Shown here: positions 29,335-51,638 of the stretch, one piece after another
Layout of the letters: each line of letters begins with the position of its first letter
Numbering within the stretch: the stretch's first letter is position 1
Assembly (NCBI GenBank): GCA_035697845.1
Contig: DASSCI010000039.1
Location: 4,590 to 68,589, forward strand
Direction: 5' to 3'
Length of the DNA stretch: 64,000 nucleotides
Source: Candidatus Limnocylindria bacterium
Lineage (GTDB): Bacteria > Chloroflexota > Limnocylindria > QHBO01
Notes under the pieces: model-generated
The model's database searches: none
What the model was told of the DNA's origin: nothing
The model's input: the letters and a program-made list of their open reading frames with translations, nothing else
Made by a program: the position numbers and the translations under genes

Positions 29335-30423
29335 TCAGCGGCCCGTGACGACGCCTCCGGCGAGCTCCCAGATGTCGGCCCGGGTCCCCTGGCCATCTCG
29401 CCCGCCGAACAGGAGGGCGCGCCCGCGGACGCCGTCACGGACCATCTCGGCGCCGGCCCGCCCCGGCGGCGCGGGGGCGACGGCCTCCAGCGCGACGGCA
29501 TCCGCCTCGCCGTCGACCAGGAGCCATAGGTCTCCGAGGTAGCCGCCGTCCGGGGCCTGGCCGCCGAACACGAGCGTTGCACCGTCGAGGCGTGCCCGCG
29601 CGTAGAGGTTGCGCTCGGGCGGCAGGGCGCCGTCGACCTGGCTCCAGCCCCCGCGGGAGAGCAGCCATCGGTCACCGAGGGCGGTGACGCCGGTCGTTTG
29701 ACCGGCGTACAGCGTGAGCTCGCCGGCATCGGTCCACCAGCAGCCGTGCAGGCAGCGCTCGACGGGTGCGGCGCCGTCCGGCGTCTCGTCGGCCCAGGCC
29801 TCGGCTGCGAAGTCGTAGGCGCGCGTATCGGCGAAGCGGGAGCCATCGGCGGTGAAGCCATGGCTGATCCAGAGGCGGCCGTCCGGTCCGACCGACGCAC
29901 AGGTGCCATATCGAGCGACCGGCACGTCGCCGCCGGCCGAAAGCAGGCGCCACGTCCCCGTCCCCGGCGAGAAAGCCCACAGATCGTCGAAGAAGCGCGA
30001 GCCGGCCTGCCCAGCGAAGATGACCAGCCCGACGCCCTCGACCCACGCGGCCTCGTGGCCGAATCGCGCCTCGGGACCCGGCGGCACGTCGAGCCTGGTC
30101 CATCCGTCGCTCTCGAGGTCGTACGTCCAGAGGTCGTCGTATACGGTCGCGCCGTCGCGCCCTCCGAAGAGGTACGCCAGCCGTCCGTCGCCGTCGACGG
30201 TCCAGGTGTGGTCCTCGCGCGACGGCGGTCCGACGACGTCGAGCTGCGTCCAGGTCATCGGTTCAGTCGCCGGGCCGGGCGGTGCGCTGGGTGGCGGTGT
30301 CGCTGTCGCCGTCGCCGCCGGCGATGCGGCGAGCGTCATGGTCGCCGAAGCCGATGGCTGCGCCGGTGCAGCGCAGGCCGTCAGCACGAGCGCATAGCCG
30401 ATCACCGTCGCCCGCTTCGACAT
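29335..30423 (-). CDS. Kelch-repeat beta-propeller lipoprotein
   Basis: Lipobox-like signal (ALVLTAC). Repeated Kelch-like blades (YLFGG..DLW.., ..LVIFAG..DLWAF.., LLFGGRDG..DIWEL). Confidence 0.7.
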   Translation of the reverse strand: MSKRATVIGYALVLTACAAPAQPSASATMTLAASPAATATATPPPSAPPGPATEPMTWTQLDVVGPPSREDHTWTVDGDGRLAYLFGGRDGATVYDDLWTYDLESDGWTRLDVPPGPEARFGHEAAWVEGVGLVIFAGQAGSRFFDDLWAFSPGTGTWRLLSAGGDVPVARYGTCASVGPDGRLWISHGFTADGSRFADTRAYDFAAEAWADETPDGAAPVERCLHGCWWTDAGELTLYAGQTTGVTALGDRWLLSRGGWSQVDGALPPERNLYARARLDGATLVFGGQAPDGGYLGDLWLLVDGEADAVALEAVAPAPPGRAGAEMVRDGVRGRALLFGGRDGQGTRADIWELAGGVVTGR

Positions 30424-30588
30424 GCGGGCAGGATGCCATGGCGCTCCAACATCGAGCATTCGACGTAGCTCCGACTGGACCGATGCGGCGGTGTCGGCAC
30501 CGCCGCCTGCCGGATGGCGCACGGACCGCCGCGCCTGACGATGAGGGCGTCATCCATCCGCAATCCTCCCTCAGGAGCCGCCCGCACC

Positions 30589-31980
30589 ATGGACACCGCC
30601 GTTACCCTGCGCTTCGCCTCCCAGCCCGTCGACCTCTCCGCCCTTGGCCGCGCACTCCGCGGACGGATCATCGAGGCCGGCGATCCCTCGTTCGACGATG
30701 AACGCCAGGTGTGGAACCTCGCCCACTCCGCCCAGCCGCTGGCGATCGTCCGAGCCGCCGATGCCCGAGACGTTGCCACCGCAGTCGGGTTCGCTCGCCG
30801 CAACGGCATCGAGATCGCGGTCCGCAGCGGCGGCCACAGCCTTGCCGGCCATAGCACCGGCGACGGCGTGCTGGTCATCGACCTGCGCGACCTGCGTGGC
30901 CTGCACATCGACCCGGCCGCAGGGATGGCGTGGGCGGGCGCCGGCCTGACTGCTGGCGAGTACACGGCCGCCGTGGCTGAGCACGGTTTGGCGACGCCAT
31001 TCGGTGACACGGGCTCTGTCGGCCTGGGCGGCATCACCCTGGGCGGCGGCATCGGCTGGCTGGCGCGCAAGCATGGCCTGACGATCGACTCGCTGCTGTC
31101 CGTCGAGATGGTGCTCGCGTCCGGCCAGATCGTGACCGCTTCGGAATCGGAGAACGCTGACCTGTTCTGGGCCGTCCGGGGCGGCGGCGGCAACTTCGGG
31201 ATCGTCACCCGCTTCTGCTATCGGCTGCATCCCGTCGACCAGATCCTTGGTGGCGCGCTCGTCCTGCCACCCACGCGCGACGTGCTCCGCAGCCTGGTGC
31301 CGATCGCGGCCGCGGCTCCTGACGAGCTGACCACGATCGCCATGATCATGCCCGCGCCGGCGCATCCGGCGATGCCCGAGGAGCACCACGGCCGCTTGAG
31401 CCTGGTCCTCATGTTCGTCTACGCCGGGGACCCTGAGGCCGGTCGTGCCGCCATCGCGCCGTTCATGGCCGTCGCCGAGCCGTACGGGGTGCTGGCCTCG
31501 CCGATGCCGTATCCGGGCATCTACGAGCTGACGGCGGGCGGCGCAGCACGCCATGCCAGCACCACGCGTTCGGTCTTCATGAGGACGCTGGACGACGCGT
31601 CGGTCGATGCGATGATGGCGGCGATCGACGTGATCCCGGCGGGCTCGATGATCCAGCTGCGCGTGTTCGGTGGCGCGATGTCACGCGTCCCGGCGACCGC
31701 CACCGCGTTCGCTCACCGCGATGCGGCGGTCCAGGTCAGCGTCATGTCGGCGTTCGTGGATGAGGCATCTGCCCCCGCGGCGGTCGCCTGGAACCGCGGC
31801 CTGTTCGCCGCACTGGAGCCGAAATCCACCGGCGTCTACGCGAACTTCCTCGAAGACGAAGGCGACGCGCGCATCAGAGCCGCCTATCCCGCCGGCGCTT
31901 ACGAGCGCCTGGCCGAGATCAAGCGCCGATACGACCCGGCCAACGTGTTCCATCGCAACCAGAACATCGCGCCGCGCTGA
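30589..31980 (+). CDS. FAD-linked oxidase (PCMH-type FAD-binding, BBE/vanillyl-alcohol-oxidase-like)
   Basis: FAD-binding segment RSGGHSLAGHSTGDGVLVIDL...GAGLTAGEY...GSVGLGGITLGGGIGWLARKHGL and an ADLFWAVRGGGGNFGIVT motif. Confidence 0.8.
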   Translation: MDTAVTLRFASQPVDLSALGRALRGRIIEAGDPSFDDERQVWNLAHSAQPLAIVRAADARDVATAVGFARRNGIEIAVRSGGHSLAGHSTGDGVLVIDLRDLRGLHIDPAAGMAWAGAGLTAGEYTAAVAEHGLATPFGDTGSVGLGGITLGGGIGWLARKHGLTIDSLLSVEMVLASGQIVTASESENADLFWAVRGGGGNFGIVTRFCYRLHPVDQILGGALVLPPTRDVLRSLVPIAAAAPDELTTIAMIMPAPAHPAMPEEHHGRLSLVLMFVYAGDPEAGRAAIAPFMAVAEPYGVLASPMPYPGIYELTAGGAARHASTTRSVFMRTLDDASVDAMMAAIDVIPAGSMIQLRVFGGAMSRVPATATAFAHRDAAVQVSVMSAFVDEASAPAAVAWNRGLFAALEPKSTGVYANFLEDEGDARIRAAYPAGAYERLAEIKRRYDPANVFHRNQNIAPR

Positions 31981-32040: not shown

Positions 32041-32116
32041 TGGAGCGGGAAACGGGTCTCGAACCCGCGACCTTCTGCTTGGGAAGCAGACGCTCTGCCA
32101 ACTGAGCTATTCCCGC
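32041..32116 (-). tRNA. tRNA-Gly (anticodon CCC)
   Basis: Reverse complement GCGGGAATAGCTCAGTTGGCAGAGCGTCTGCTTCCCAAGCAGAAGGTCGCGGGTTCGAGACCCGTTTCCCGCTCCA. Cloverleaf with anticodon loop UUCCCAA, very similar to known tRNA-Gly. Confidence 0.9.
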
Positions 32117-32237: not shown

Positions 32238-32510
32238 CTAGCGGATCAGGGTCACCCCACCGCCCTGGGCATGGCTCGGGGAGGCTGCGACGGTTCCGAC
32301 GGTGCCGGCGGCGACGGCCGCCATCAGGGCCACGCCAGCCAGGCCGGCCGCCAGCCGCCGAGCTGTCAGTGAGCGGAACGCGTCGCGATTGAACGGTCGC
32401 GCATGCTCGTGGCGGTCCTTCTGGACCATGCGGATGCGGGCCGCGTGATCGAGTCGCTCGCCGTACGTCTGCTTGGCCAGGTGATAGCTGGTGGTGTTCG
32501 GTCCGAGCAT
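32238..32510 (-). CDS. Hypothetical small protein with C-terminal TM
   Basis: Only ORF evidence; weak. Confidence 0.2.
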   Translation of the reverse strand: MLGPNTTSYHLAKQTYGERLDHAARIRMVQKDRHEHARPFNRDAFRSLTARRLAAGLAGVALMAAVAAGTVGTVAASPSHAQGGGVTLIR

Positions 32511-32623: not shown

Positions 32624-33424
32624 ATGCGCTCCCTGTCGGCCCAGCCGCGCATGCGCTGTCGTACGCGCGACACCTTGACGCCGAGCGCGCTGACGGGGGA
32701 GAGTGTCCGCGCGTACGAGGGTGCCTGCGTGCTCGACCATTCCGTCGCGATCGACCTGCTGCGCCGATGCGCGCTCTTCGCGCACGCGTCGGACGACGGC
32801 CTTCGTGCGCTGGCTGGCCAGATGCGGCGCCGCCGGTATCGGCGCAACGAGGTGATCTTCCACCAGGGAGACATCGGCGATTCCTTCCACGTGGTTGCTG
32901 CCGGCGCGGTCAAGATCGTGCTCCCGTCGGCCGAGGGCGACGAGGCAATCATCGCCAGCCTCAAGCCGGGCGACTTCTTCGGCGAGCTGGCGCTGCTCGA
33001 CAGCTCACCGCGCTCGACGACCGCGACGGCCATCGAGGTGACGGAGACGCTGACGCTTCCCCGTGAGCACTTCCTGCACCTCCTCCAGGACGATCCGGAG
33101 CTCGTCCGCGCCCTGCTGCGAGCGCTGGCCGAGGAGCTGCGCCGCCTCACGGGGCACGTGGAGGAGCTGCACTTCCTGGATCTCGCAGGGCGGTTGTCGA
33201 TGCGCCTGGTCCGCCTTGCCCGCGACGCCAACCCCGACGCCACCGGCCGCTGCGAGCTCGACTGGCCGTTCACCCAGTCTGACCTGGCTGCAATGATCGG
33301 CGGGACGCGCCAGAGCGTGAACAAGCTGCTCAGCGGCCTCGTCGAGGATGGGCTGATCAGCATCGAGCGCGACACCCTCGTCATCAACGACGTGCTCCAG
33401 CTCGAGCGTCATGGAAGCCGATGA
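32624..33424 (+). CDS. Crp/Fnr family transcriptional regulator (cNMP-binding + HTH)
   Basis: cNMP-binding motif (GDFFGELALLDSSPRSTTATA) and C-terminal HTH (QSDLAAMIGGTRQSVNKLLSGL). The start is uncertain; the track ORF begins at 32510. Confidence 0.8.
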   Translation: MRSLSAQPRMRCRTRDTLTPSALTGESVRAYEGACVLDHSVAIDLLRRCALFAHASDDGLRALAGQMRRRRYRRNEVIFHQGDIGDSFHVVAAGAVKIVLPSAEGDEAIIASLKPGDFFGELALLDSSPRSTTATAIEVTETLTLPREHFLHLLQDDPELVRALLRALAEELRRLTGHVEELHFLDLAGRLSMRLVRLARDANPDATGRCELDWPFTQSDLAAMIGGTRQSVNKLLSGLVEDGLISIERDTLVINDVLQLERHGSR

Positions 33425-33528
33425 GTGTCGCGCAGGCGACAGCCAGAGTGTCGGATCAGTGCTTCGGCGAGCGCACCGGGCACCGTAGGATCAGCCACAT
33501 TGCGGTCGATGCTGCCAGCTAGGAGGCA

Positions 33529-33921
33529 ATGAACGATATGGACAGATTCCGGCGGCGACCGCCGATGGAAGGGTTCTCGCGCCCGGGTTCGCTGGGCGGC
33601 GAGGCATACGATGACGACTCAGTGGAGGGTCACATGATGGACGACGATCGCACCCAGGACATCGACACCGAGGGCCACGCCTTCGTCCGCCGCGCGGATG
33701 AGAGCGACGACACCGAGGGTCACGCGTTCACCCGTCGCGCGGACGACAGCGACGATACCGAGGGCCACGCCTTCACCCGCCGAGCGGATGATGACGAGGA
33801 CACCGAGGGCCACGCGTTCACGCGTCGAGCCGACGACGAGGACGACACGGAAGGTCACGCCGGCTGGCTGAAGGCCACCGACGAGGACGACACAGAGGGC
33901 CACGTCTCCAAGATCAAGTAG
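33529..33921 (+). CDS. Small acidic tandem-repeat protein: six copies of a ~15-aa unit D-[DE]-x-D-T-E-G-H-A-F-[TV]-R-R-A-D
   Basis: Protein is MNDMDRFRRRPP...DTEGHAFVRRADESDDTEGHAFTRRADDSDDTEGHAFTRRADDDEDTEGHAFTRRADDEDDTEGHAGWLKATDEDDTEGHVSKIK. The 45-bp DNA repeats differ at synonymous positions. AGGAGG RBS upstream; the start may be ATG 33529 or 33538. Confidence 0.6.
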   Translation: MNDMDRFRRRPPMEGFSRPGSLGGEAYDDDSVEGHMMDDDRTQDIDTEGHAFVRRADESDDTEGHAFTRRADDSDDTEGHAFTRRADDDEDTEGHAFTRRADDEDDTEGHAGWLKATDEDDTEGHVSKIK

Positions 33922-33931
33922 CCACCCGCGC

Positions 33932-34711
33932 GTGGCACAAGATCCCCCAGTGGATGCCGCGATCGCCGCGCTTGTCGCGGCATCGCGGCGTTCCGCCGTT
34001 GGACGACGGCTGCAGGGCGACGTCGAGACCCGTCTCCTCCAGAGCATCGTCGACGCGACCGTGCGACTGTTCGATGCCGAGGCGGCCTCGATTGCGCTTT
34101 TCGAGCCGGATCCGGACCGGCTCGAGTTTCGTGTTGCCGCCGGCGAGCAGGGCGCGGGAGCGATCGGCCTGTCCGTTCCTCCCACCCAGGGCATCGTCGG
34201 CTTCGTCTACTCGACCGGCCAGGCGCTCGCTCTCTCCGACGTCGCCAACGATCCGCGCTTCAACCGGGATGCGGCGGAGCAGACGGGCTACGTGCCTCGC
34301 TCGATCGCCGCGGCCCCGCTGCTCGACGAGAACGGGACGCAGGGCGTCCTGCAGGTGCTCGACAAGCACTCGTCGGCGACCTTCTCACTGCGCGACATGG
34401 AGCTGCTGGCCGTCTTCGCGCGACAGGCGACCGTTGCCATCGCCGCCACCCGGGTCCAGCGCGACACCGCCCGTCTCCTGCGCGGCGTGCTGGCCGATCT
34501 CGCTCCGGACCTGACGGACGAGCAGGCCGAGGCCGCCGTATCGGCGGCGACGCAGGGGCTCGACGCAGAGGACGAGCCCTTCTGGAGTCTGGTCGACCAG
34601 ATCGCCCGACTTCGCGGGCTCAGCGACCGCGAGACGAGCCTGGTCTCGGCCATCCTGGAAACCGTGGCGGCTCACGCGGAGCGAACGCAGCGCGGCCGCA
34701 TCGGTCGATGA
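33932..34711 (+). CDS. GAF domain-containing protein
   Basis: GAF-like core (GIVGFVYSTGQALALSDVANDPRF...SIAAAPLLDENGTQGVLQVLDK). GTG start. Confidence 0.75.
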   Translation: MAQDPPVDAAIAALVAASRRSAVGRRLQGDVETRLLQSIVDATVRLFDAEAASIALFEPDPDRLEFRVAAGEQGAGAIGLSVPPTQGIVGFVYSTGQALALSDVANDPRFNRDAAEQTGYVPRSIAAAPLLDENGTQGVLQVLDKHSSATFSLRDMELLAVFARQATVAIAATRVQRDTARLLRGVLADLAPDLTDEQAEAAVSAATQGLDAEDEPFWSLVDQIARLRGLSDRETSLVSAILETVAAHAERTQRGRIGR

Positions 34712-35556
34712 CGTCGTCCGAGCTCCCGGCCTGGTCCGAGCCGTTCACCAACCGCCGGCGCGAGCTTCGCCGACGCCTCCGGGTCAAGGGCGTCACGCGT
34801 GATTGGGCCTGGGGCGGGGCGACCGGGGCCGGCGTCCGGGTTGGCATCATCGACTCGGGGCTCGAGAACGCACATCCGAGGCTCCGCGGACGCGTCGCCG
34901 AGAACGTCACGGTCGAGATGACCGATGACGGTCCAAGGGTCGTGCCGGACGACCCGATCGACATGTTCGGACATGGCACTGCGTGCGGCGACATCATCCT
35001 CTCGCTCGCTCCCGACGTGGAGCTCGTCAGCATCCGGGTCCTTGGCGCCGACCTGCGCGGCAAGGGAACCGCCTTCGCCGCCGGGCTGGAGTGGGCCCTC
35101 GAGCATGACATCCAGGTCTGCAACCTGAGCCTGTCGTCGAAGAGCGAGTCGCTGTACCCGGTCTTCCACGACCTGGCCGATCGCGCCTACTTCCAGTCGA
35201 TGGCGCTCATCAGCGCCGCCAACAACGTGCCGGCGCCGAGCTATCCGTCCCTGTTCAGCTCGGTCTTCTCGGTGGCCGCTCACGCCGAGCCGGACCCGTG
35301 GCGCATCTACTACAACCCGGCGCCTCCGGTCGAGTTCGGCGCGTGGGGCGTGGACGTGCCGATCGCCTGGAAGGACGGCGGCTCCACGGTGGCCACTGGC
35401 AACAGCTTCGCCGCGCCGCACGTGGCGGGGCTGGTGGCGCTGATCCTCTCGAAGCACCCGGGCCTGAGCCCGTTCGAGGTGAAGGCCATCCTGGCCAGCG
35501 TGGCCGACAACCCCGGACGGCGACATCCGTGGCGTCGGCGCGTGTCCGCTCCGTGA
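34708..35556 (+). CDS. S8 family (subtilisin-like) serine peptidase, no signal peptide (cytoplasmic)
   Basis: Catalytic triad motifs VGIIDSG (Asp), HGTACGD (His) and GNSFAAPHVAG (Ser). ATGA overlap with the GAF gene. Confidence 0.8.
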   Translation: MTSSELPAWSEPFTNRRRELRRRLRVKGVTRDWAWGGATGAGVRVGIIDSGLENAHPRLRGRVAENVTVEMTDDGPRVVPDDPIDMFGHGTACGDIILSLAPDVELVSIRVLGADLRGKGTAFAAGLEWALEHDIQVCNLSLSSKSESLYPVFHDLADRAYFQSMALISAANNVPAPSYPSLFSSVFSVAAHAEPDPWRIYYNPAPPVEFGAWGVDVPIAWKDGGSTVATGNSFAAPHVAGLVALILSKHPGLSPFEVKAILASVADNPGRRHPWRRRVSAP

Positions 35557-37169
35557 GCCTGCTTCGGACCTACCTCGACCTCTTCCGCCGCAACGGTGCG
35601 CTCTCGCGCCTGCTGGCAGGCGAGTTCGTGTCGGGCATCGGCGACTGGCTGTATCTCGTGGCGGTCCTCGTCGTCGTCTACGCCGACAGCAACTCGCCGG
35701 TGCTCCTCGGCATCGTGGGCGCCGCGCGGATCCTGCCGTACGTGCTGCTGTCCGTTCCGGCCGGCATCGTCGCCGACCGCTTCGACCGGCGGATGGTCCT
35801 GTTGGTGACCGACGTCGCCCGCGGCGTCCTGATGCTCGTGCTGGTCGGTGCGGTGATGGTCGATGCTCCGACCCTCGTGATCGTGGCGGTGTCCATCCTG
35901 GCGGCCTGCTTCTCGACCTTCTTCGGCCCGGCCATCGCTGCGCTGGTGCCGACGATCGTCGATGAGCGCGACCTCGGAATCGCCAACAGCGCGTGGGCCA
36001 CGCTCGACAACGTCGCCTTCATCGTGGGGCCCGCGCTCGCGGGGCTCCTGCTCGCCGGCGGAGGGCTGGAGATCGCCTTCCTGCTCAACGCCGTCTCGTT
36101 CGCCGTCGTGGCCGTCGTGCTCTGGCAGCTGCCGATTCCACGCACGGCCGACGTGGTGGTGAGCCCCGAGGACGAGCAGCCGGCATCGGCCTCCTGGCGC
36201 GATCTCGTTCGGCCCCTGGCGGGCCCCTTCATCCTCGACTCGACCACCAGCATCGTCGGAGGCGGCCTGGGCGTGCTGACGGTCGTCATCGCCATCGACG
36301 TGCTGGGCGCGGGCGATGCCGGGACCGGCTACCTGAATGCCGCCATCGGCGTCGGCGGAGTCGTGGCGGGCATCGCCGGAGGTGCGCTCCTCGCACGCAG
36401 GCTGAGCGTGCCGCTCCTGCTGGGCGGCCTCGCCGGAGGTGTCGGCCTCGCGTGGCTCGCGCTGACCGGTGATCTCCTGACCGCCATGCTCGCCATCGGC
36501 GTCGCCGTGGCCGGGCTGCTGCTCCTCGACGTGGTCAACACCACGCTCATCCAGCGCATCGTTCCCGATGCGCTCCGCGGACGCGCCGTGGGCGCGATGC
36601 AGACCAGCTCATCGGTCCTGTATGCCGCCGGCTCGCTGGTCATGCCGCTGCTGGCGGACGCGCTGGGCGTGCCCGTGGTGCTGATCGGCGCAGCGGTCAT
36701 CATGGCCGCCGGCGCAATCCTGGCCCTGGTGCTCAGCGGGAGCCAGGAGGAACCCGCGGCCGTCGATGCCTCGCGCATCCGGTTGCTGGAGCGGCCGATC
36801 TTCGCCGGGCTTCCGCCAGCTCGCATCGAGGCAGCCGCACGAGGACTGGTCCCCGTGCCGGTTGATGCGGGCGAGGCCGTCGTTCGCCAGGGCGAGGCGG
36901 CCGACCGCTTCTACGTGATCGATTCCGGAGAGCTGCGCGTCACGCAGGTCAGCGACGGTGACGTCCATTTCCTGCGTGATCTCGGCCCGGGCGACGTCTT
37001 CGGCGAGATCGGCCTGCTGCGAGGAGTGCCCCGCACGGCGACCGTCACGGCCAGCACTCCCGCCGTGCTCTACGCCCTCGACGCCGCGGCCTTCGGTGAG
37101 CTGGTTGGCTCCGGGCCTGGATTGAGCTCGCGGCTGCTCGATCTGTACCGGGGCGCGCTCAGCCGTTGA
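35553..37169 (+). CDS. MFS transporter fused to a C-terminal cyclic-nucleotide-binding domain
   Basis: ~12 TM helices followed by a cNMP-binding domain (FYVIDSGELRV...GPGDVFGEIGLLRGVPRTATVTA). GTGA overlap with the S8 peptidase stop. Confidence 0.75.
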   Translation: MSLLRTYLDLFRRNGALSRLLAGEFVSGIGDWLYLVAVLVVVYADSNSPVLLGIVGAARILPYVLLSVPAGIVADRFDRRMVLLVTDVARGVLMLVLVGAVMVDAPTLVIVAVSILAACFSTFFGPAIAALVPTIVDERDLGIANSAWATLDNVAFIVGPALAGLLLAGGGLEIAFLLNAVSFAVVAVVLWQLPIPRTADVVVSPEDEQPASASWRDLVRPLAGPFILDSTTSIVGGGLGVLTVVIAIDVLGAGDAGTGYLNAAIGVGGVVAGIAGGALLARRLSVPLLLGGLAGGVGLAWLALTGDLLTAMLAIGVAVAGLLLLDVVNTTLIQRIVPDALRGRAVGAMQTSSSVLYAAGSLVMPLLADALGVPVVLIGAAVIMAAGAILALVLSGSQEEPAAVDASRIRLLERPIFAGLPPARIEAAARGLVPVPVDAGEAVVRQGEAADRFYVIDSGELRVTQVSDGDVHFLRDLGPGDVFGEIGLLRGVPRTATVTASTPAVLYALDAAAFGELVGSGPGLSSRLLDLYRGALSR

Positions 37170-40281: not shown

Positions 40282-41694
40282 ATGGCCCTTCCGAATCCCG
40301 CCCTGACCCAGATTCCAGACTCATACAAGTACGGCTGGAGCGATCCCGAGGCGACGCACCTGAACATCGCCCGCAAGGGCCTTTCGGCCGAGATCGTCGA
40401 GGAGATCAGCCGTTTCAAGGGCGAGCCGGAGTGGATGACGAAGCTTCGCCTCAAGGCCTATCGGCACTTCGAGGCGCGGCCGATGCCGAACTGGGGCGCC
40501 GACCTGTCGGCCATCGACTTCCAGGACATCTACTACTACATCGCGCCGACCGACAAGGCGGTCCAGAGCTGGGACGACGTGCCCGACTACATCCGGCGCA
40601 CGTACGACAAGCTCGGCATCCCGGAGGCGGAGAAGAAGTACCTCGCCGGTGTCGGCGGCCAGTACGACTCCGAGGTCGTGTACCACAACATCCGCGAGGA
40701 CCTCGAGAAGCAGGGCGTCATCTTCCTCGGCACCGATGAGGCCCTCAAGAAGCACCCGGACATCTTCCTCGAGCACTTCGGGACCGTCATCCCGGCCAAC
40801 GACAACAAGCTGGCCGCGCTGAACACGGCGGTCTGGTCGGGCGGATCGTTCATCTACGTGCCGCCGGGCGTGCACGTCGAGCTGCCGCTGCAGGCCTACT
40901 TCCGGATCAACACCGAGAACATGGGCCAGTTCGAGCGGACGCTGATCATCGCCGACGAGGGGTCGAGCGTTCACTACGTCGAGGGCTGCACCGCGCCGAC
41001 GTACTCGACCGCTTCCCTCCACAGCGCCGTGGTCGAGATCATCGTCAAGAAGGGCGCGCGGGTGCGCTACACGACGATCCAGAACTGGAGCCACAACGTC
41101 TACAACCTCGTCACCAAGCGCGCCGTGGCGCACGAGGACGCGGTCATGGAGTGGGTCGACGGCAATCTCGGCTCGCGCGTGACGATGAAGTACCCGTCCA
41201 TCTACCTGGTCGGTGAGCGGGCGCACGGCGAGGTGCTGTCCATCGCCTTCGCGGGCGACGAGCAGCACCAGGACGCCGGCGGCAAGGTCATCCACGCGGC
41301 GCCGCACACGACCTCGCTCATCACCTCGAAGTCGATCAGCAAGGGCTCCGGCCGCACCTCGTACCGCGGCCTGGTCAAGGTCTATCCCGGCTGCGAGAAG
41401 TCGAAGTCGACGGTCCGTTGCGACGCCCTGATCCTCGACGAGCAGGCGCGCTCCGACACGTATCCGTACATGGAGATCGACGAGGAGGACGTCACCATCG
41501 GCCACGAGGCGACCGTCTCGAAGGTCGGCAGCGAGCAGCTCTTCTACCTCATGAGCCGCGGCCTGTCGGAGGCCGAAGCCGCCGCGATGATCGTGAACGG
41601 CTTCATCGAGCCAATCGTCAAGGAGCTGCCGATGGAGTACGCGGTCGAGATGAACCGCCTCATCCAGCTCCAGATGGAAGGCGCCGTCGGGTGA
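40282..41694 (+). CDS. sufB: Fe-S cluster assembly protein SufB
   Basis: 470 aa; highly conserved SufB sequence (e.g. ...[30 protein letters not shown]...). Confidence 0.9.
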
Positions 41695-42929
41695 CGACCG
41701 CGACCACGGCGATCAGCCTCGACGCGGCCGCAATCGCCGATATCTCCAAGCAGCTCGACGAGCCCGACTGGCTGCGCGACCTCCGTGCCGCGTGGTGGGA
41801 GCGCGCGAGCTCCACCCCGCCTCCCACCGGACACGAGGAGGAATGGCGGCGCACGGACCTCGCCGCGCTCCCGCGTGATGGTCGGCTGCTGACGGATGCC
41901 CCACGGCTTGACGTCAGCGGCGTCGCCGAATCCGGCGTCATCCTGACCGACCTGCGGACGGCCGTCGCCGAGCACCCCGAGCTCGTGCGCCGGTACCTCG
42001 GCCAGGGCCAGCCGCAGGCTTCGCACGCGCACTTCTGGGCGCTTGCGCAGGCGGCCTGGACGGGCGGCCTCTTCTGCTACGTGCCGAAGGGCGTCCACGT
42101 TGACGGCACGCTCGTCGCGCGCACCGCACTGCCGGCCTCGGATGTCACCTACCTCCCGGTCAGCCTGGTGGTCGCGGAGGAGGGCAGCAGCGTGTCGCTC
42201 CTCCAGCAGGTCACGTCACCGGACGGCGCCGCCGGCTGGTTCGGTGGGATCGTCGAGATCATCGCCGGCGAGGGCGCCGAGGTGCGCTTCGCCAACCTCC
42301 AGCAGCTCGGTGACGAGACGTGGAACGTCGGTGCGCAGCGCGTGGTGGTCGGGCGCGACGCGCACGTCACGACGCTCGACGCCGAGGTCGGCTCGCGCAT
42401 CACCAAGGTCGGCCTGGATGCCGAGATGGCGGGAAAGGGTGGGACCAGCAAGCTGCTCGGCCTGCTCGCCGCGGGCGACGACCAGCACATCGACATCAAC
42501 GCGCACCAGGTCCTTGCGGCGGACTACACCACCAGTGACCTGCTCTATCTCTCGGCGCTGTACGACCGCGCCCGCGCGGCGTTCTACGGCGTCACGCTGG
42601 TCGAGCAGGGCACGCGCCAGACGAGCTCCTACCAGGAGTGCCGCAACCTGCTCCTGAGCCCCAACGCCGGCGCCGAGCCGATCCCGGTGCTCGAGATCAA
42701 GGCCAACGACATCCTGCGCTGTGGCCACGGTGCGACGGCCGGGGCGATCGACCCCATCCAGCTGTTCTACGCCCAGACCCGCGGCCTGGATCCCGATGCC
42801 GCCGAGCGCATGATCGTGCGCGGCTTCTTCGAGCAGGTCGTTTCCCAGATCCACGACGAGACCATCCGCGCCGAGGTGCTGACCGCCCTCGCCGGCCGCA
42901 TCGGATTCGCTGACGAGGACGCGGCATGA
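41691..42929 (+). CDS. sufD: Fe-S cluster assembly protein SufD
   Basis: SufBD-family C-terminal beta-helix region. GTGA overlap with sufB. Confidence 0.85.
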
Positions 42930-43267
42930 CGGCCCTCGAGCGCGCGACGGGCGGATTCGTGGCCGTGGCACGCGTCGGCGACGTCGAGCCGGGCACCGTC
43001 CGCGTGGTGGAGGTCGACGGACGTTCGCTGTGCCTCGGGCTGACCGAGGATGGCGAGTGGGGAGCCATCGACAACATCTGCACGCACGACGGCGGCACCC
43101 TCGGCGAGGGCGAGCTCGACGACTCGGCCGTCGAGTGCCCGCGTCATGGCGGCCGCTTCGACCTGTTCACGGGACGCGTCCTGGCGCTGCCGCCCGTTCG
43201 GCCCGTGACGGCCTACGAGACGGAAGTCGATGGCGACGACGTGCTCGTCAGGATCGGCCCCGCATGA
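42926..43267 (+). CDS. Rieske [2Fe-2S] ferredoxin-like protein
   Basis: CTHDGG...CPRHGGRFD gives the Rieske CxH...CxxH motifs. Confidence 0.85.
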   Translation: MTALERATGGFVAVARVGDVEPGTVRVVEVDGRSLCLGLTEDGEWGAIDNICTHDGGTLGEGELDDSAVECPRHGGRFDLFTGRVLALPPVRPVTAYETEVDGDDVLVRIGPA

Positions 43268-43769
43268 AGATCAGCACCCGCACCGAATACGGCATTCGCG
43301 TCCTGGTGACGCTGGCGCGCATCGAGGATGACACGAGCTGCCTGTCGCTGACGGAGATCGCGCGCCGCGAGAAGCTGCCGCACGCCTACCTCGAGCAGCT
43401 CGTCGGCGACCTGCGCCGCGCGGAGCTCGTGACGGCAACTCGCGGCCAGTCCGGCGGGTATCGGCTCAACCGACCTGCCGATGAGATTCACATGTCCGAT
43501 GTGATTCGCGCCCTCGAGGGACCGCTGCTGGAGATGCCGTGCGCCGGTGCCGAGGACCTGGAGCACTGCGACCGGCCTCAGCCGTGCAGCGTGCACGAGG
43601 TCTTCAAGCGCGTCTACGAGTCGCTGTCCGTATCGCTCGGCTCCACCAACCTGGCCGACGTGGCCGCGAGCGCAGGCGGGCCTCCCTATCCACCCCAGGT
43701 GCGCCGGCGCCGAGCCGCCGAGCACGCCGCCCTCCTCGATCCGAAGGCATCCCAGCAGGCAAGGAACGC

Positions 43770-43773
<4 letters not shown>
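43264..43773 (+). CDS. Rrf2 family transcriptional regulator (IscR/SufR-like) with three Cys in the C-terminal half
   Basis: N-terminal Rrf2 HTH (MKISTRTEYGIRVLVTLA). C-terminal half contains CAG...C...C. Confidence 0.8.
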
Positions 43774-44630
<857 letters not shown>

Positions 44631-44637
44631 GCCTTCG

Positions 44638-45897
44638 ATGGCCGTCGGGCAGGTCGGCGCCCCGCTCCTGGACGGGGCCGCGCTGCGGGCCGACTTCCCG
44701 GTCTTCGAGCGTCCGACGGCGTCCGGCCGGCCGCTGGCCTATCTCGACTCCGCGGCGTCGTCGCAGAAGCCACGGGCCGTCATCGAAGCCCTGGCCGATG
44801 CGTACGGCCATCACTACGCCAACGTCCATCGCGGCATCTACGAGCTGAGCGTCGACGCCGACTCGCGCTACGAGGCTGCGCGCACCGCCGTCGCCCGTTT
44901 CATCGGCGCATCCAGCCCGCGCGAGGTCGTCTTCGTCCGCAACGCGACCGAGGCGCTCAACCTGGTGGCGGCGAGCTGGGGTGGCGCGAACCTCGGCCCG
45001 GGCGACCTCGTCCTCTCGACCGAGATGGAGCACCACGCCAATCTCGTGCCCTGGCAGCAGGTCGCGCGCGGAACCGGCGCCTCGCTGGAGTACGTCGCCA
45101 TCACCGATGACGGCCGCCTGGATCTCGACGACCTGCGCGCGCGCCTGGCGCGCGGCCCGAAGCTGTTGGCCCTCGCGCACGTCAGCAACTCGCTCGGGAC
45201 CATCAACCCGGTGGCTGAGATCACGCGCATGGCGCACGAGGCCGGCGCCCTGGTGGTCCTGGACGCCGCCCAGAGCGTGCCCCACATGCCCGTCGACGTG
45301 ACTGCGCTCGGCGTCGACTTCGCGGCGCTATCGGGGCACAAGATGCTGGGACCGTCGGGCATCGGCGCGCTGTGGGGCCGCCGGGAGCTGCTCGATGCGA
45401 TGCCACCCTTCCTGACCGGCGGCAGCATGATCACGCGCGTCACGCTGGAGGGTGCCGAGTGGAACGAGGTGCCGTGGAAGTTCGAGGCCGGCACCCCTGC
45501 CATCGCCGAGGCGATGGGACTCGCCGCGGCCATCGACTACCTCCAGAGCATTGGCATGGACCGCGTCCGCGCCCACGAGCGCTTCCTGTTCGAGCGTGCC
45601 TGGGCGTCGCTCGAGGACATGCCCGGCGTCCGCCTTCTTGGCCCGGCCTCTCCGGACGAGCATGCGGGCGTCATCGGCTTCGTGGTGGATGGCATCCATC
45701 CGCACGACGTGGCCACCATCCTCGACAGCGAGGGAATCGCCGTTCGGGCCGGCCACCACTGCGCTCAGCCGGTCATGCTGCGCTACGACCTGCCGGCCAC
45801 CACGCGCGCCAGCTTCTACGTCTACAACGACCTCGATGATGTCGAGCGCCTCGTCGACGGCATTCGCACGACACAGCAGGTCTTCGGCACCGCATGA
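44638..45897 (+). CDS. sufS: Cysteine desulfurase SufS
   Basis: Class-V aminotransferase with PLP lysine region SGHKMLGPSGIGALWG and catalytic Cys in RAGHHCAQP. Confidence 0.9.
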   Translation: MAVGQVGAPLLDGAALRADFPVFERPTASGRPLAYLDSAASSQKPRAVIEALADAYGHHYANVHRGIYELSVDADSRYEAARTAVARFIGASSPREVVFVRNATEALNLVAASWGGANLGPGDLVLSTEMEHHANLVPWQQVARGTGASLEYVAITDDGRLDLDDLRARLARGPKLLALAHVSNSLGTINPVAEITRMAHEAGALVVLDAAQSVPHMPVDVTALGVDFAALSGHKMLGPSGIGALWGRRELLDAMPPFLTGGSMITRVTLEGAEWNEVPWKFEAGTPAIAEAMGLAAAIDYLQSIGMDRVRAHERFLFERAWASLEDMPGVRLLGPASPDEHAGVIGFVVDGIHPHDVATILDSEGIAVRAGHHCAQPVMLRYDLPATTRASFYVYNDLDDVERLVDGIRTTQQVFGTA

Positions 45898-46334
45898 CCG
45901 GCGACAACCTGTACCGCGACTTCATCCTCGAGCACTATCGAGAACCTCACAACCGAGGCGTGCTCGAGCCGCACGACCTGCACTTCGCCGATTCCAACCC
46001 GACCTGCGGCGATGAGATGAGCATGACCCTGCGCCTCGATGAGGCCAGGGAGCGCGTTGCCGACGTCGCCTTCGATGGACGGGGATGCGCCATCAGCCAG
46101 GCATCGGCCTCGATCCTGACCGATGACCTGCGCGGGCTGACGCTGGGCGAGCTTCGAGAGCTCGATCCGGCCGAGGTCGTCGCCAACCTCGGCGTGCCGA
46201 TCGGCCCGGCCCGGCTGAAGTGCGCGCTGCTCGTGTACAAGGTCCTCCAGGGTGCGGTGCGAGGAGCGGCGGTCGGCTGGCCCGAGGAGGCGGACGTCCT
46301 GGCCGGCGGGAACGCCGGCGGCTCGGCGCCGTGA
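45894..46334 (+). CDS. sufU: SufU/IscU-like zinc-dependent sulfur transferase
   Basis: Conserved Cys motifs NPTCGDEM, GRGCAIS and KCALL. Confidence 0.85.
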   Translation: MTGDNLYRDFILEHYREPHNRGVLEPHDLHFADSNPTCGDEMSMTLRLDEARERVADVAFDGRGCAISQASASILTDDLRGLTLGELRELDPAEVVANLGVPIGPARLKCALLVYKVLQGAVRGAAVGWPEEADVLAGGNAGGSAP

Positions 46335-47446
46335 GCGTTCGCAACGTCGGTGCGGCCGAGGCGGTCGCGCTCGCGCGGGCCGGCTATCGGGTCATCGACG
46401 TGCGCGAGCCGGTCGAATGGGATGCCGGTCACATCGCCGATGCGACGCTGCTGCCGCTCGGCGACGTCGTCGAGCGCATCAACCGGGTGGCCCCCGATCG
46501 CGACGCTCCACTGCTGCTGCATTGCAGTGCCGGTGCTCGCTCGGCGCGCGCTGCCGGGTGGCTGGTCGACCTCGGCTACACGAACGTCGCCAACCTTGAC
46601 GGCTCGATCGACGGCTGGCGTGAGCAGGGTGGGGCCTGGGTGGAGCCGACGACCTCGTTGACGGACGCCCAACGGCGTCGATACGCCCGTCAGCTCGTCC
46701 TGCCCGAGGTCGGCCCGGAGGGTCAGCGGCAGCTGCTCGAGGCCCGCGTGCTGGTCGTGGGTGCGGGAGGGCTCGGCTCGCCCGTGGCCCTGTACCTGGC
46801 GGCGTCCGGCGTGGGCACCCTCGGGATCGTCGACGACGACGTGGTCGACGAGTCGAACCTCCAGCGGCAGGTCGTGCACGCCGCGGAACGGCTCGGAATG
46901 CGCAAGGTCGCCTCGGCAGCGGTGGCGGTGCGTGCGCTCAACCCCGAGACGAACGTGGTCGAGCACGACGCGCGCCTGAGCGCCGCCAACGTCGCCGATG
47001 TCATCGCCGGCTACGACCTCGTGGTCGACGGCACCGACAACCTCGACACCCGCTACCTGCTCAACGATGCTGCCGTCGCCACCGGCACGCCGGTGGTGCA
47101 CGGATCGGTATACCGATGGGATGGCCAGGTCACGACGCTCGTCCCGTTCGAGGGGCCCTGCTACCGATGCCTCCACCCGGTCCGGCCGCCCGACGATCTC
47201 GTGCTCGACTGCGACGTTGCGGGCGTGCTGGGCGTGCTGCCCGGCATCGTCGGCACCATCCAGGCTGCTGAGGCGCTGAAGCTCCTGCTTGGCGTGGGCG
47301 AGCCACTGGTCGGCCGGATGCTCATCTACGACGCGCTCGGGGCCCGATTTGACGAGATCGCCATCCCGCGCGACCCGGCGTGCGTGACCTGCGGGTCGGC
47401 CGCGGCTCCCTGGAGGCATCCGGCCATCGCGCCCGCCTCGGCGTGA
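46331..47446 (+). CDS. Rhodanese-ThiF/MoeB fusion (E1-like sulfur-carrier adenylyltransferase/sulfurtransferase; rhodanese domain N-terminal)
   Basis: Rhodanese with active Cys (LLLHCSAGARSA) followed by ThiF motif (VLVVGAGGLGSP) and a CxxC...CxxC zinc site. GTGA overlap with sufU. Confidence 0.8.
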   Translation: MSVRNVGAAEAVALARAGYRVIDVREPVEWDAGHIADATLLPLGDVVERINRVAPDRDAPLLLHCSAGARSARAAGWLVDLGYTNVANLDGSIDGWREQGGAWVEPTTSLTDAQRRRYARQLVLPEVGPEGQRQLLEARVLVVGAGGLGSPVALYLAASGVGTLGIVDDDVVDESNLQRQVVHAAERLGMRKVASAAVAVRALNPETNVVEHDARLSAANVADVIAGYDLVVDGTDNLDTRYLLNDAAVATGTPVVHGSVYRWDGQVTTLVPFEGPCYRCLHPVRPPDDLVLDCDVAGVLGVLPGIVGTIQAAEALKLLLGVGEPLVGRMLIYDALGARFDEIAIPRDPACVTCGSAAAPWRHPAIAPASA

Positions 47447-47472: not shown

Positions 47473-47880
47473 GTGCTCCCGGTGGATCTCGCCGCGCGCA
47501 TGCTCGAGCATGCTCGAGCCGAGCTGCCGAACGAGGCATGCGGCCTGGTGGGCGGTGACCCGTCCACCAGGCGAGCGGTCAGCTTCCATCCGGCTCGCAA
47601 CCGGCACGCCAGCCCGCTGCGATACGACATTCATCCGGAGGACCTCGTCCGGATCGTCTTCACGATCGAGTCGGCCGGCGAAGCGCTCCTGGCCGTCTTC
47701 CATTCGCACCCGCGATCGGCAGCCGTTCCGTCGCCGACGGATGTGCGCGAGGCCCGATACGAGGCCGTTCACCTGATCGCCACGCTGGCCGACCCAGGGG
47801 GCGATGCCGCGGACGCGCTCCGCGGCTGGATCGTGAAGGACGGCGCGGTATCGGAGGTCGCGATCCGGATCAGCGCGTGA
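47473..47880 (+). CDS. JAMM/MPN+ metalloprotease (Mec+/QbsD-like)
   Basis: JAMM motif E...HSHPRSAAVPSPTD. The start is uncertain (GTG 47473 or ATG 47500). Confidence 0.7.
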   Translation: MLPVDLAARMLEHARAELPNEACGLVGGDPSTRRAVSFHPARNRHASPLRYDIHPEDLVRIVFTIESAGEALLAVFHSHPRSAAVPSPTDVREARYEAVHLIATLADPGGDAADALRGWIVKDGAVSEVAIRISA

Positions 47881-50434: not shown

Positions 50435-50501
50435 AGCGGCGATCCTCACTATCGGCTCAGCACGCGTCGGCGGCAATGGGCAATCGGTGTAGCCTTCGTC
50501 C

Positions 50502-51638
50502 ATGACGACTCCGGCGTTTGACGTAGGTGGCTCCGTTGCAACGCGCCACCGCGAGCGGCTGCAGCGCGCCGCCGCGCAGGCGCGCGAGACCGGCGTGGAC
50601 GTGATGCTCGTCACGCCGTCGAAGGACTACGCCTATCTGCTGGGCTACGCGGCGCCGGCCATGGAGCGCCTGACCTGCCTGGTCGTCCCCGCGGATGGCA
50701 ACGCGACGCTGGTCCTGCCGCGACTGGAGGAGCCGCTCGCCCGCCACGAGCTCGGCGACCTCGCCGATGAGCTCGAGATCGTGCCGTGGGCGGAAACCGA
50801 GGACCCCATCCGCACCGTCCAGACCCTGGTTGGATCGGCCGGCCGGGTGGCCGTGCAGGACCAGATGTGGGCGCGCTTCGCCCTGGCCCTGCAGGCCGCG
50901 CTCGACCCGGCCCAACTGGTGGCGGCTGGACCGATCCTCAGCTCGCTTCGGCGGGTCAAGGACGTCGATGAGGTCGATCGCCTTCGCGCGGCGGCCGCCG
51001 CGGCGGACCAGGCGATGCTGGCCATCACCGGCGAGCGCCTCTCCGGGCGCACCGAGCGCGACGTGAGCACACGGGTCCGTGAGCTGCTGCTCGAGGCCGG
51101 CCACGACGAGGCGGGCTTCGCCATCGTCGCATCCGGGCCGAACGCGGCGAGCCCGCATCATGCGGCCGGCGATCGGGAGATCGAGGCCGGTGATGCGATC
51201 GTGCTCGACATCGGCGGCTTCCGCGCCGGCTACGGCAGCGACACGTCACGCACGGCGTTCGTCGGCGAGCCACCGCCCGACTTCGCCGCGCTCTACGAGG
51301 TGCTGCGCCACGCCCAATCGGCCGCGTGCGACGCCGTCCGCCCGGGCGTCCCGGCGGCGCAGATCGACCGCGTGGCGCGCGACATCATCACCGATGCCGG
51401 CTACGGCGACGCATTCCTGCACCGGACCGGCCACGGCATCGGCATGGAAACCCACGAGGAGCCGTACATCGTCTCGTCCAACGCCGAACCGCTGGTTGCC
51501 GGCAACGCCTTCAGCGTCGAGCCTGGCATCTATATCCGTGACACGTGGGGCGCGCGCATCGAGGACATCGTGGTCTGCACCGAGTCCGGTGGCGAGCGCC
51601 TCAACACCACCTCGACGCAGCTCTACCTCGTCTCCTGA
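50502..51638 (+). CDS. M24 family Xaa-Pro aminopeptidase/dipeptidase
   Basis: Pita-bread fold metal ligands (DIGGFRAGYGSD...HRTGHGIGMETHEEP...SVEPG). Confidence 0.8.
   Translation: MTTPAFDVGGSVATRHRERLQRAAAQARETGVDVMLVTPSKDYAYLLGYAAPAMERLTCLVVPADGNATLVLPRLEEPLARHELGDLADELEIVPWAETEDPIRTVQTLVGSAGRVAVQDQMWARFALALQAALDPAQLVAAGPILSSLRRVKDVDEVDRLRAAAAAADQAMLAITGERLSGRTERDVSTRVRELLLEAGHDEAGFAIVASGPNAASPHHAAGDREIEAGDAIVLDIGGFRAGYGSDTSRTAFVGEPPPDFAALYEVLRHAQSAACDAVRPGVPAAQIDRVARDIITDAGYGDAFLHRTGHGIGMETHEEPYIVSSNAEPLVAGNAFSVEPGIYIRDTWGARIEDIVVCTESGGERLNTTSTQLYLVS

Follow-up and report, generated by a model that had tools for sequence, protein, structure and literature searches.

A repeat-protein gene linked to a subtilisin-like protease, cyclic-nucleotide-type sensor domains and an exporter in Limnocylindria: a candidate peptide-precursor module

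In the cyanobactin pathway the S8 (subtilisin-like) protease PatA cuts after G(L/V)E(A/P)S (PMC10885120). Fungal Kex2-processed repeat proteins (KEPs) and the α-factor precursor hold tandem peptides, which another S8 protease, KEX2, turns into numerous secreted copies; the peptides are often species-specific (PMC7329392, PMC6339444, PMC9769878). In the maturation of quinohemoprotein amine dehydrogenase, QhpE, a cytosolic subtilisin-like enzyme, removes the QhpC leader before export by a dedicated efflux transporter (PMC7876137), and the intracellular subtilisin proteases (ISPs) of Bacillus and Planococcus are cytoplasmic S8 enzymes that have no I9 prodomain and carry a short conserved N-terminal extension placed so as to regulate the active site (PMC6220982). 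Here we describe a locus in a 64,000-nucleotide stretch of a Candidatus Limnocylindria genome (assembly GCA_035697845.1, contig DASSCI010000039.1, positions 4,590 to 68,589; the whole stretch is called the window and its own numbering is used throughout). At this locus a gene for a tandem-repeat protein (33529–33921, + strand) stands among genes for a Crp/Fnr-family regulator, a GAF-domain protein, an S8 protease and a major facilitator superfamily (MFS) transporter fused to a cyclic-nucleotide-binding (CNB) domain. An initial annotation, made from the sequence alone, had picked out the repeats and suggested that they might either bind metal or be core peptides with protease sites between them. 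Our strongest evidence comes from the genetic context, which favours the second idea, because a protease predicted to be cytoplasmic and an exporter are genetically locked to the repeat gene; the element conserved in the units is D[TV]EGH, however, and not the dibasic RR. A plausible, still tentative, reading is that of a cyclic-nucleotide-controlled module that would transcribe, cut and export short peptides from a multi-unit precursor.

The five-gene module

The genes of the module in the window are:

32729–33424, + strand: Crp/Fnr-family regulator, 231 aa from the likely start GTG 32729 (mechanical open reading frame, ORF, from 32510)
33529–33921, + strand: repeat-protein gene, 130 aa from ATG 33529 or 127 aa from the likelier ATG 33538
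33932–34711, + strand: GAF-domain protein, 259 aa, with the GAF domain at residues 34–170 and a helical C-terminal part of ~90 aa
34708–35556, + strand: S8 subtilisin-like serine protease, 282 aa (PF00082, 3.7e-23)
35553–37169, + strand: MFS_3 transporter with a C-terminal domain binding cyclic nucleoside monophosphates (cNMP), likely start GTG 35553 (mechanical ORF from 35298)

In every GTDB locus with enough flank (50 loci), genes for Crp, GAF, S8 and MFS-CNB proteins adjoin the repeat gene. The five-gene set also surrounds homologues on long contigs, and the linkage holds in distant subfamilies as well. Scanned for the motif alone, JGI metagenomes yielded 29 contigs of 4 kb or more. On 25 of them an ORF bears three or more motifs, and 20–21 of these 25 show matches to Crp, GAF and S8, the remainder being mostly cut by contig ends. 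At least five gene orders occur (PRE stands for the repeat gene, arrowheads for direction):

Order 1: Crp-PRE-GAF-S8-MFS, as in the window
Order 2: MFS>PRE><S8<GAF<Crp, in loci L042, L043, L047, L049, L051 and L052, with partner proteins 51–62% identical
Order 3: PRE><MFS<Crp GAF>S8>, on a 3-Mb contig from a subfamily whose leader differs, followed by a guanylate-cyclase/kinase fusion
Order 4: GAF-S8-Crp-PRE-MFS, on JGI metagenome contigs
Order 5: MFS-Crp-PRE-GAF-S8, on JGI metagenome contigs

Since the association is kept through rearranged orders in divergent groups, it is not merely the shared ancestry of close relatives. The module looks vertically inherited and not mobile: in the lineage of the window its neighbourhood is syntenic and of housekeeping character (Kelch protein, GNAT, RsgA and the SUF operon). 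The named loci all belong to Chloroflexota, except for a few contigs in metagenome-assembled genomes (MAGs) that are labelled otherwise. Module contigs of this kind (L017, L012, L033, L038, L029 and L031) sit in MAGs assigned to Binatia, Steroidobacteraceae, Acidimicrobiales or Angelobacter and are probably mis-binned, because their genes are 74–88% identical to those of Limnocylindria. Locus L097 has its upstream flank and shows no partner match there, and its contig ends shortly after the repeat ORF. The ORF itself (6054–6589) combines three DTEGH units with a predicted transmembrane segment and a C-terminal region rich in Ala and Gln, and may be a membrane-anchored variant of the repeat protein.

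Three domains of the cNMP-sensing type, that of the GAF protein putatively so, are present in the module, in the Crp homologue, the GAF protein and the transporter. The Crp homologue has a cNMP_binding domain (PF00027, 1.5e-26) followed by HTH_Crp_2 (PF13545, 3.8e-14), and its orthologues in L001 and L003 are likewise 231 aa long. The GAF protein (Pfam GAF, 7e-19) has as its nearest solved relatives the cNMP-binding (cAMP/cGMP) GAF domains of PDE2A, PDE5, PDE10 and CyaB. The transporter matches MFS_1 (7.8e-36), MFS_3 (7.1e-28) and cNMP_binding (1.6e-22); it is a member of the EntS-like 'transmembrane secretion effector' family, with weak matches to peptide and macrolide exporters. Between the repeat gene and the GAF gene lie 10 bp; the GAF gene shares 4 bp (ATGA) with the S8 gene, and the transporter start overlaps the S8 stop by another 4 bp, an overlap shared by its orthologues (541–542 aa). 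The two overlaps suggest co-translation of GAF with S8 and of S8 with the transporter.

The Crp homologue and the C-terminus of the transporter have weak matches to the NCBIfam model TIGR03896, for cNMP-binding domains that go with peptide or bacteriocin export (41 and 28 bits against a cutoff of 161). The module resembles TIGR03896 systems in that a cyclic-nucleotide-binding domain is associated with an exporter, but here the domain is fused to an MFS protein rather than being a free tandem-CNB protein beside an ABC/C39 transporter, and the scores are far below the cutoff. A search for a nucleotide cyclase near the module in the window found none. Genes for class III cyclases (Guanylate_cyc with Ser/Thr kinase or AAA_16) adjoin the module at three other loci (L056, 12362–13702; L057, 2064–3467; L058, 13365–16345).

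Operator and promoter region

Four elements precede the genes for the regulator and the repeat protein:

32657–32672: palindrome TGTCGTACGCGCGACA (TGTC-N8-GACA), 57 bp upstream of the likely crp start
33426–33441: palindrome TGTCGCGCAGGCGACA, starting 2 bp past the stop codon of crp, with the repeat gene ~100 bp downstream
33486–33491, + strand: −10-like hexamer TAGGAT, 44 nt downstream of the palindrome, with the TA..AT columns conserved in 35 loci
33521–33526, + strand: ribosome-binding site AGGAGG, of which GGAGG is conserved in the 35-locus alignment

The 16-bp palindrome has the 5-N6-5 format of Crp/Fnr-type sites, with boxes of the TGTCG-N6-CGACA type, and the pattern TGTC-N8-GACA occurs exactly twice in the 64-kb window (0.93 copies expected by chance). 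An alignment of 35 regions upstream of the repeat gene shows the TGTC and GACA half-sites each to be at least 90% conserved. A box lies within 400 bp upstream of the first motif codon in 98 of 114 repeat genes, the overall density predicting 0.067 boxes per 400 bp, at a median distance from that codon of 207 bp (interquartile range 187–240). Both positions, before crp and before the repeat gene, recur in most related loci, and the boxes are kept in distant groups whose partner proteins are only 34–55% identical. The two features by which a Crp/Fnr regulon is recognized, a regulator with cNMP_binding and HTH_Crp_2 domains and a conserved 5-N6-5 palindrome upstream of its targets, are both found. 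It is very probable that the repeat gene leads a Crp-dependent, autoregulated operon as its regulated first gene, with the Crp homologue predicted to bind the operator at 33426–33441.

The hexamer TAGGAT is a putative promoter element only, because a generic scan for sigma-70 promoters and terminators was uninformative and detected no promoter. An Rfam scan of the intergenic regions gave no RNA element besides a tRNA-Gly. The box at 32657–32672 sits in a divergent intergenic region that crp shares with an ORF on the − strand (32238–32510). This ORF encodes 90 aa with one predicted transmembrane segment and no Pfam match; an equivalent is conserved at the same place in ~34 related loci, and it may be a sixth member of the module.

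The repeat protein and its family

Within a window of ~70% G+C, Tandem Repeats Finder reports a 45-bp period at 33663–33861 (4.4 copies, 80% matches, score 233) and, for the same array, a 90-bp period (score 282). Parsed in frame, the ORF 33529–33921 contains seven EGH motifs, at residues 33, 48, 63, 78, 93, 108 and 123, in an exact 15-codon register that spans 33616–33918. The initial annotation had counted six 45-bp repeats; the repeat is real but comprises seven EGH-bearing units:

33616–33918, + strand: seven 45-bp (15-codon) units, each [DE]-x-D-[TV]-E-G-H followed by a variable spacer with a basic residue
Unit 1: DSVEGHMMDDDRTQD
Unit 2: IDTEGHAFVRRADES
Unit 3: DDTEGHAFTRRADDS
Unit 4: DDTEGHAFTRRADDD
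Unit 5: EDTEGHAFTRRADDE
Unit 6: DDTEGHAGWLKATDE, in which DDTEGH is followed by AGWLKAT
Unit 7: DDTEGHVSKIK, then the stop codon

Units 2–5 share the pattern (I/D/E)DTEGHAF(V/T)RRAD…. EGH is indeed invariant, as had been proposed, in all seven units, but the dibasic RR assigned to each unit is present in only four. Nor are the last two units degenerate: their motif is intact, and other species, too, have the AGWLKA[ST] spacer and the xSKIK tail seen in the window.

Units 3–5, which are nearly identical as peptides, differ pairwise by 4–7 synonymous and 1–2 non-synonymous codons; estimates by the NG86 method (dN 0.06–0.12, dS 0.6–2.2) are noisy, the units being only 15 codons long. Because these units differ mainly at synonymous codons, the copies are taken to be old and maintained by selection at the protein level, and the synonymous divergence rules out recent slippage. 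The synonymous divergence and the protein-level selection noted by the initial annotation are thus borne out, dN/dS in the window being far below 1.

The gene probably starts at ATG 33538 (MDRFRRRPP…), giving a product of 127 aa. This codon is preferred because it lies 11 nt past AGGAGG (33521–33526), as against only 2 nt for ATG 33529, and because MDRFRRRPP… is the N-terminus of the homologues. The 127-aa protein is acidic (pI 4.4), with 40 Asp and Glu, 17 Lys and Arg, seven His and no Cys. Inspection of its sequence found neither a signal peptide nor a hydrophobic N-terminus, and AlphaFold, run with the family alignment, predicts it to be fully disordered and devoid of secondary structure (predicted template-modelling score 0.11).

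A search of 5.8 billion proteins returned 178 homologues at E ≤ 1e-3, all labelled 'hypothetical' and derived from soil metagenomes and from MAGs of Candidatus Limnocylindria and other Chloroflexota; a profile search without word filters found at least 334 representatives at the same threshold among 1.84 billion cluster representatives. There are no Pfam-A or NCBIfam matches at default thresholds and only noise at E ≤ 10, and the family profile has no match among PDB sequences at E ≤ 10. The motif DTEGH/DVEGH was not found in this sense in the literature searched, and searches for the motif, the gene combination and Limnocylindria gave no description of such a system. The repeat family, its motif, the five-gene module and its operator are undescribed in the libraries and literature searched.

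Close homologues are uniform in layout, with a conserved N-terminal region, 3–6 further units and a short tail. The N-terminal region reads M-D-x-[YF]-RRRPPMEGFSRPGSLGGEA-x-DDDSVEGH[IM]M, and is present in the window protein as RRRPPMEGFSRPGSLGGEA-x-DDDSVEGH[IM]M; the C-terminal tail has 4–6 residues and ends in K/R or K-R-S (xSKIK, AKIR and similar). In 121 close homologues, with units anchored on EGH, 99% of units have Asp at position −2, Thr (90%) or Val (8%) stands at position −1, positions −3 to −5 are Asp or Glu, the residues after His vary, and one period measures 12 to 21 residues. Among 212 diverse representatives the motif retains His in 95% (Gln in 3%), Gly in 98.5% and Glu in 92%, and position −1 is divided between Val (48%), Thr (45%) and Ala (7%). 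Homologues thus keep [DE]-x-D-[TV]-E-G-H, and do not show the drift without a conserved motif that the initial annotation had named as speaking against it. Between units of one protein (41 genes) dN/dS is 0.04 on D-T-E-G-H and 0.54 on the remainder of the unit, which marks the D-T-E-G-H motif as the main target of selection.

The spacers are a different matter. Among 376 spacers of 4–13 residues 238 are distinct; all have at least one K or R, and dibasic pairs are seen in 38%. Spacer identity is 0.45 inside a protein and 0.12 between proteins. By these measures the spacer behaves as a compositionally constrained linker. That the spacers might be identical cores under strong selection is true of units 3–5 in the window, but was rejected for the family as a whole (dN/dS 0.54). 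Unit number also varies among near-identical genomes, L005 lacking one AFTRR unit beside neighbour genes 97–99% identical.

A fortuitous low-complexity ORF, generated by slippage in a GC-rich genome, or a mis-called frame, might be suspected from the acidic, low-complexity sequence, the missing database annotation and the further ORFs that overlap the repeat ORF in other frames. Such an origin is refuted by the comparative data and can safely be set aside: hundreds of homologues share the frame, the motif and the start region, the motif evolves at a dN/dS of 0.04, the units have diverged synonymously, G+C at third codon positions is 0.83 in this frame, and the ribosome-binding site and upstream operator are conserved.

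The wider superfamily has in common proteins of 50–240 aa without Cys and 3–9 units of a [DE]-x-D-[TVA]-E-G-H repeat, and differs in its N-termini (MxFGKKFGPGEGFSVRPGGE…, MxxKFQPGEExFDDVxGH…, or very short leaders). Another type of protein with DxEGH repeats has the conserved C-terminal tail …EGH(M/S)M..NPxLAR(E/D)LARARE(Q/R)DIQR… (L032, L041, L042, L043, L053 and L058; P0125, P0133, P0182, P0183, P0186, P0226 and P0331). Its gene is often an additional copy beside the same Crp–GAF–S8 genes; the 64-kb window contains no copy. Two profile matches, P0177 and P0185, are unrelated repetitive proteins and were taken as false positives. P0181 (381 aa), with a cNMP-binding domain and 11 DAEGH repeats, was rejected as Rosetta-stone fusion evidence; the ORF call probably runs on from crp into the repeat gene, because the junction looks out of frame and an internal Met start matches family members. 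It does show Crp–repeat adjacency in another subfamily.

The composition of the motif also bears on metal binding, the other idea of the initial annotation. Each [DE]-x-D-[TV]-E-G-H block could serve as a set of ligands, with three carboxylates, a Gly that makes the turn and a His, so that the disordered protein, or peptides released from it, would bind calcium or another metal and buffer, chaperone or scavenge the cation. The 1-3-5-6 spacing of the block resembles the DxDxDG loop of EF-hands; the carboxylates at −4 and −2 and the E, G and H are invariant across the superfamily, 40 acidic residues and seven His are packed into 127 aa, and the linked transporter is of the EntS-like family, which exports a siderophore. 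The match to canonical loops is nonetheless poor, since position 5 is Glu (92–100%) instead of Asp, Asn or Ser, no Glu or other residue is conserved at position 12, and no flanking helices are predicted. Some proteins exchange His for Gln in most or all units (P0188, six of six; P0166, P0170, P0174 and P0207), which a metal ligand should not tolerate, and no metal-responsive regulator, metal transporter or metalloenzyme is linked in the loci examined, where the sensors are all of the cNMP type. Metal binding as the function of the protein appears unlikely to us. It is compatible with processing, and could be a property of the released peptides.

The S8 protease and the precursor reading

The S8 protease is a minimal enzyme. 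It aligns to residues 20–248 of mature subtilisin BPN', with only ~17 extra residues at the N-terminus, and neither a signal peptide nor an I9 prodomain was found in it; by its sequence the protease is cytoplasmic. The catalytic triad (D49, H88 and S233) and the oxyanion residue N173 (equivalent to N155 of BPN') are intact and invariant in 46 orthologues. Over the same orthologues the N-terminal LPAWSEP is conserved, and LPAWS is kept at 53% identity. The 120 best database matches are 83–100% identical, and the protease is far better conserved than the repeat protein.

In the alignment with BPN' the S1 pocket carries the exchanges G127→S143, E156→V174 and G166→S178 and a deletion of residues 157–162. 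Because the pocket is by this alignment small and neutral, a kexin-like preference for a basic P1 residue is unlikely, and a small or polar P1 residue appears more plausible. Processing of the dibasic or kexin type was rejected on two grounds, the small, neutral pocket and the dibasic pairs being confined to 38% of spacers. The window encodes a second S8-domain protein (47870–50614, − strand, 914 aa) with an S-layer-homology domain, a large cell-surface subtilase unrelated to the minimal cytoplasmic S8 of the module.

Set beside the described systems, the module shows partial likenesses, yet lacks features by which the cyanobactin, KEP and QhpC–QhpE systems are each defined. As in the cyanobactin precursor PatE with its proteases PatA and PatG, where such sequences serve for recognition, a multi-cassette protein has conserved short sequences flanking variable segments, but this is a likeness of form only. 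D(T/V)EGH shares the format of the PatA site (a β-branched or hydrophobic residue, Glu, a small and a polar residue), although the recognition sequences are unrelated. Unlike the cyanobactin enzymes, the protease here is a single 282-aa S8 without a second protease, a domain of unknown function (DUF) or a macrocyclase insert; the repeat protein has no Cys and no Pro/Cys-rich cores, the host is a member of Chloroflexota, export would be by an MFS protein and control by cNMP. No YcaO heterocyclase, DUF or prenyltransferase gene was seen among the scanned neighbours or in the related loci, and the module has no oxidase of the cyanobactin kind.

With KEPs and the yeast α-factor precursor the repeat protein shares tandem short peptides with basic residues between the copies. 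It differs from KEPs in having no signal peptide or secretory pathway, in the low proportion of dibasic spacers (38%) and in an acidic-TEGH element without KEP counterpart; the protease differs from kexin and furin in that the aligned S1 pocket (V174, S178) is small and neutral, not acidic.

QhpE is the best NCBIfam model for the S8 protein (NF049966), with the full profile covered at 112.6 bits, short of the curated cutoff of 165. Both are small, cytoplasmic, prodomain-less subtilases in an operon with a single peptide substrate, here putative, and an exporter. The present system departs from that of QhpE in this score, in an MFS instead of an ABC exporter and in a candidate substrate that is repetitive; no radical-SAM QhpD, QhpG or QhpC-like Cys/Trp peptide gene lies near the module in the window.

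As general proteases of the stationary phase, ISPs have no tie to a GAF protein, to a repeat substrate or to a transporter. Like them, the S8 protein is without signal peptide or prodomain and has a short conserved N-terminal extension; unlike theirs, this extension does not match the motif [LVI]-[IFLV]-P-[YFH] (PMC6220982) and has E-L-P-A-W (x-L-P-A-W-S-E-P) instead.

In a further alternative the repeat protein would be an intracellular regulatory substrate or decoy (an inhibitor, a sponge or a timer) that the GAF-controlled protease destroys when the nucleotide rises. The transporter would then do something else, or only dispose of fragments, and no exported product would matter. A fully disordered (predicted) protein adjoining a dedicated cytoplasmic protease, weakly constrained spacers, conservation of the module as core, syntenic chromosome content, and the place of LPAWSEP on the protease, where intracellular subtilisins have their auto-inhibitory extension (PMC6220982), all agree with such a role. 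It leaves unexplained, however, an EntS-like exporter with its own cNMP domain that stays linked through every rearrangement, the free diversification of unit number and spacers between species, and the second repeat gene of another type beside the same protease in many genomes. We judge it improbable.

The multi-unit precursor is the most economical reading of a disordered, signal-less and Cys-free protein with a regular motif and variable spacers and copy number, encoded together with a dedicated subtilase and an exporter. According to it, a rise in cAMP or cGMP would cause the Crp homologue to act at the TGTC-N8-GACA boxes before crp and the repeat gene. The cytoplasmic, prodomain-less subtilase would recognize [DE]-x-D-[TV]-E-G-H, recurring every 12–21 residues, and cut the precursor into several short peptides, probably gated by the co-translated cNMP-type GAF protein. 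The EntS-like transporter would export the fragments, its own C-terminal cNMP-binding domain gating the export. In this scheme the protease would recognize or cut at the conserved motif, which might also be what is active in the product, and the lineage-specific, always basic spacer would give each species its own peptide. A cut after His would yield peptides made of spacer, acidic run and TEGH together with a small tail; a cut after a basic residue would make all products resemble the natural C-terminus, but fits the S1 pocket poorly. The product might be a signal, a metallophore or something else.

Several points weigh against the precursor reading or limit it. The conserved partners comprise a regulator, a GAF protein, a protease and a transporter, with no modifying enzyme found among them, so that the module is not a classical system for RiPPs (peptides made by the ribosome and modified after translation). 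Its syntenic position and vertical inheritance across the class make it look like core physiology and not like an accessory antibiotic cluster. The dN/dS of 0.54 outside the motif is what a disordered linker would show, unlike a strongly selected bioactive core, and recognition guided by a leader is not general, because distant subfamilies lack the long N-terminal region. The substrates of MFS transporters are usually smaller than ~1 kDa. One full 15-residue unit has 1.7 kDa, large for such a transporter, so that two cuts per unit (6–8-mers of ~0.7 kDa) or further trimming by a peptidase would be required. The AlphaFold model of the S8 protease is poor (pLDDT, the predicted local distance difference test, is 58 with a 22-sequence alignment) and gives no basis for substrate docking or for a view of the N-terminal LPAW segment and the pockets, and the relatives all come from uncultured organisms. 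The more ambitious version of the precursor reading, in which one second messenger would gate transcription (Crp), the protease (GAF) and export (MFS-CNB) and so place species-specific acidic-His peptides outside the cell, we consider possible but doubtful.

Other genes of the window lie around the module. A Kelch-repeat β-propeller protein (− strand) and a BBE-type FAD oxidase (+ strand) are encoded at 29335–31980, the Kelch gene being syntenic with the module in related genomes, and a tRNA-Gly gene (anticodon CCC, 32041–32116, − strand) stands between the oxidase gene and the small divergent ORF. Further downstream, at 40282–47446 (+ strand), there is a SUF gene cluster for Fe–S assembly (two SufB/D, a SufC-like ABC ATPase, and a class-V aminotransferase/SufS), and a rhodanese–ThiF fusion comes after it.

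Very little is known of the physiology of Limnocylindria and related Chloroflexota, which abound in soil and are uncultured. Defined here for them are a large protein family without annotation, which comprises hundreds of clusters at 50% identity and has a strict motif of six residues, and a five-gene module, kept through many rearrangements, with a conserved operator. Should the motif bind metal instead, it would be a new short metal-binding repeat. If the precursor reading is true, the module would be a bacterial counterpart to the fungal and cyanobacterial repeat precursors cut by S8 proteases, and would offer a new pair of protease and recognition sequence (D[TV]EGH) of possible biotechnological use. 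It would link cAMP/cGMP signalling to peptide secretion, turning an intracellular signal into an extracellular peptide output, and if triple gating by cNMP were confirmed the system could be categorically new. Its products would then be peptides of a new class, unmodified, released by a protease, serving in signalling or ion binding, and widespread among the Chloroflexota of soil.

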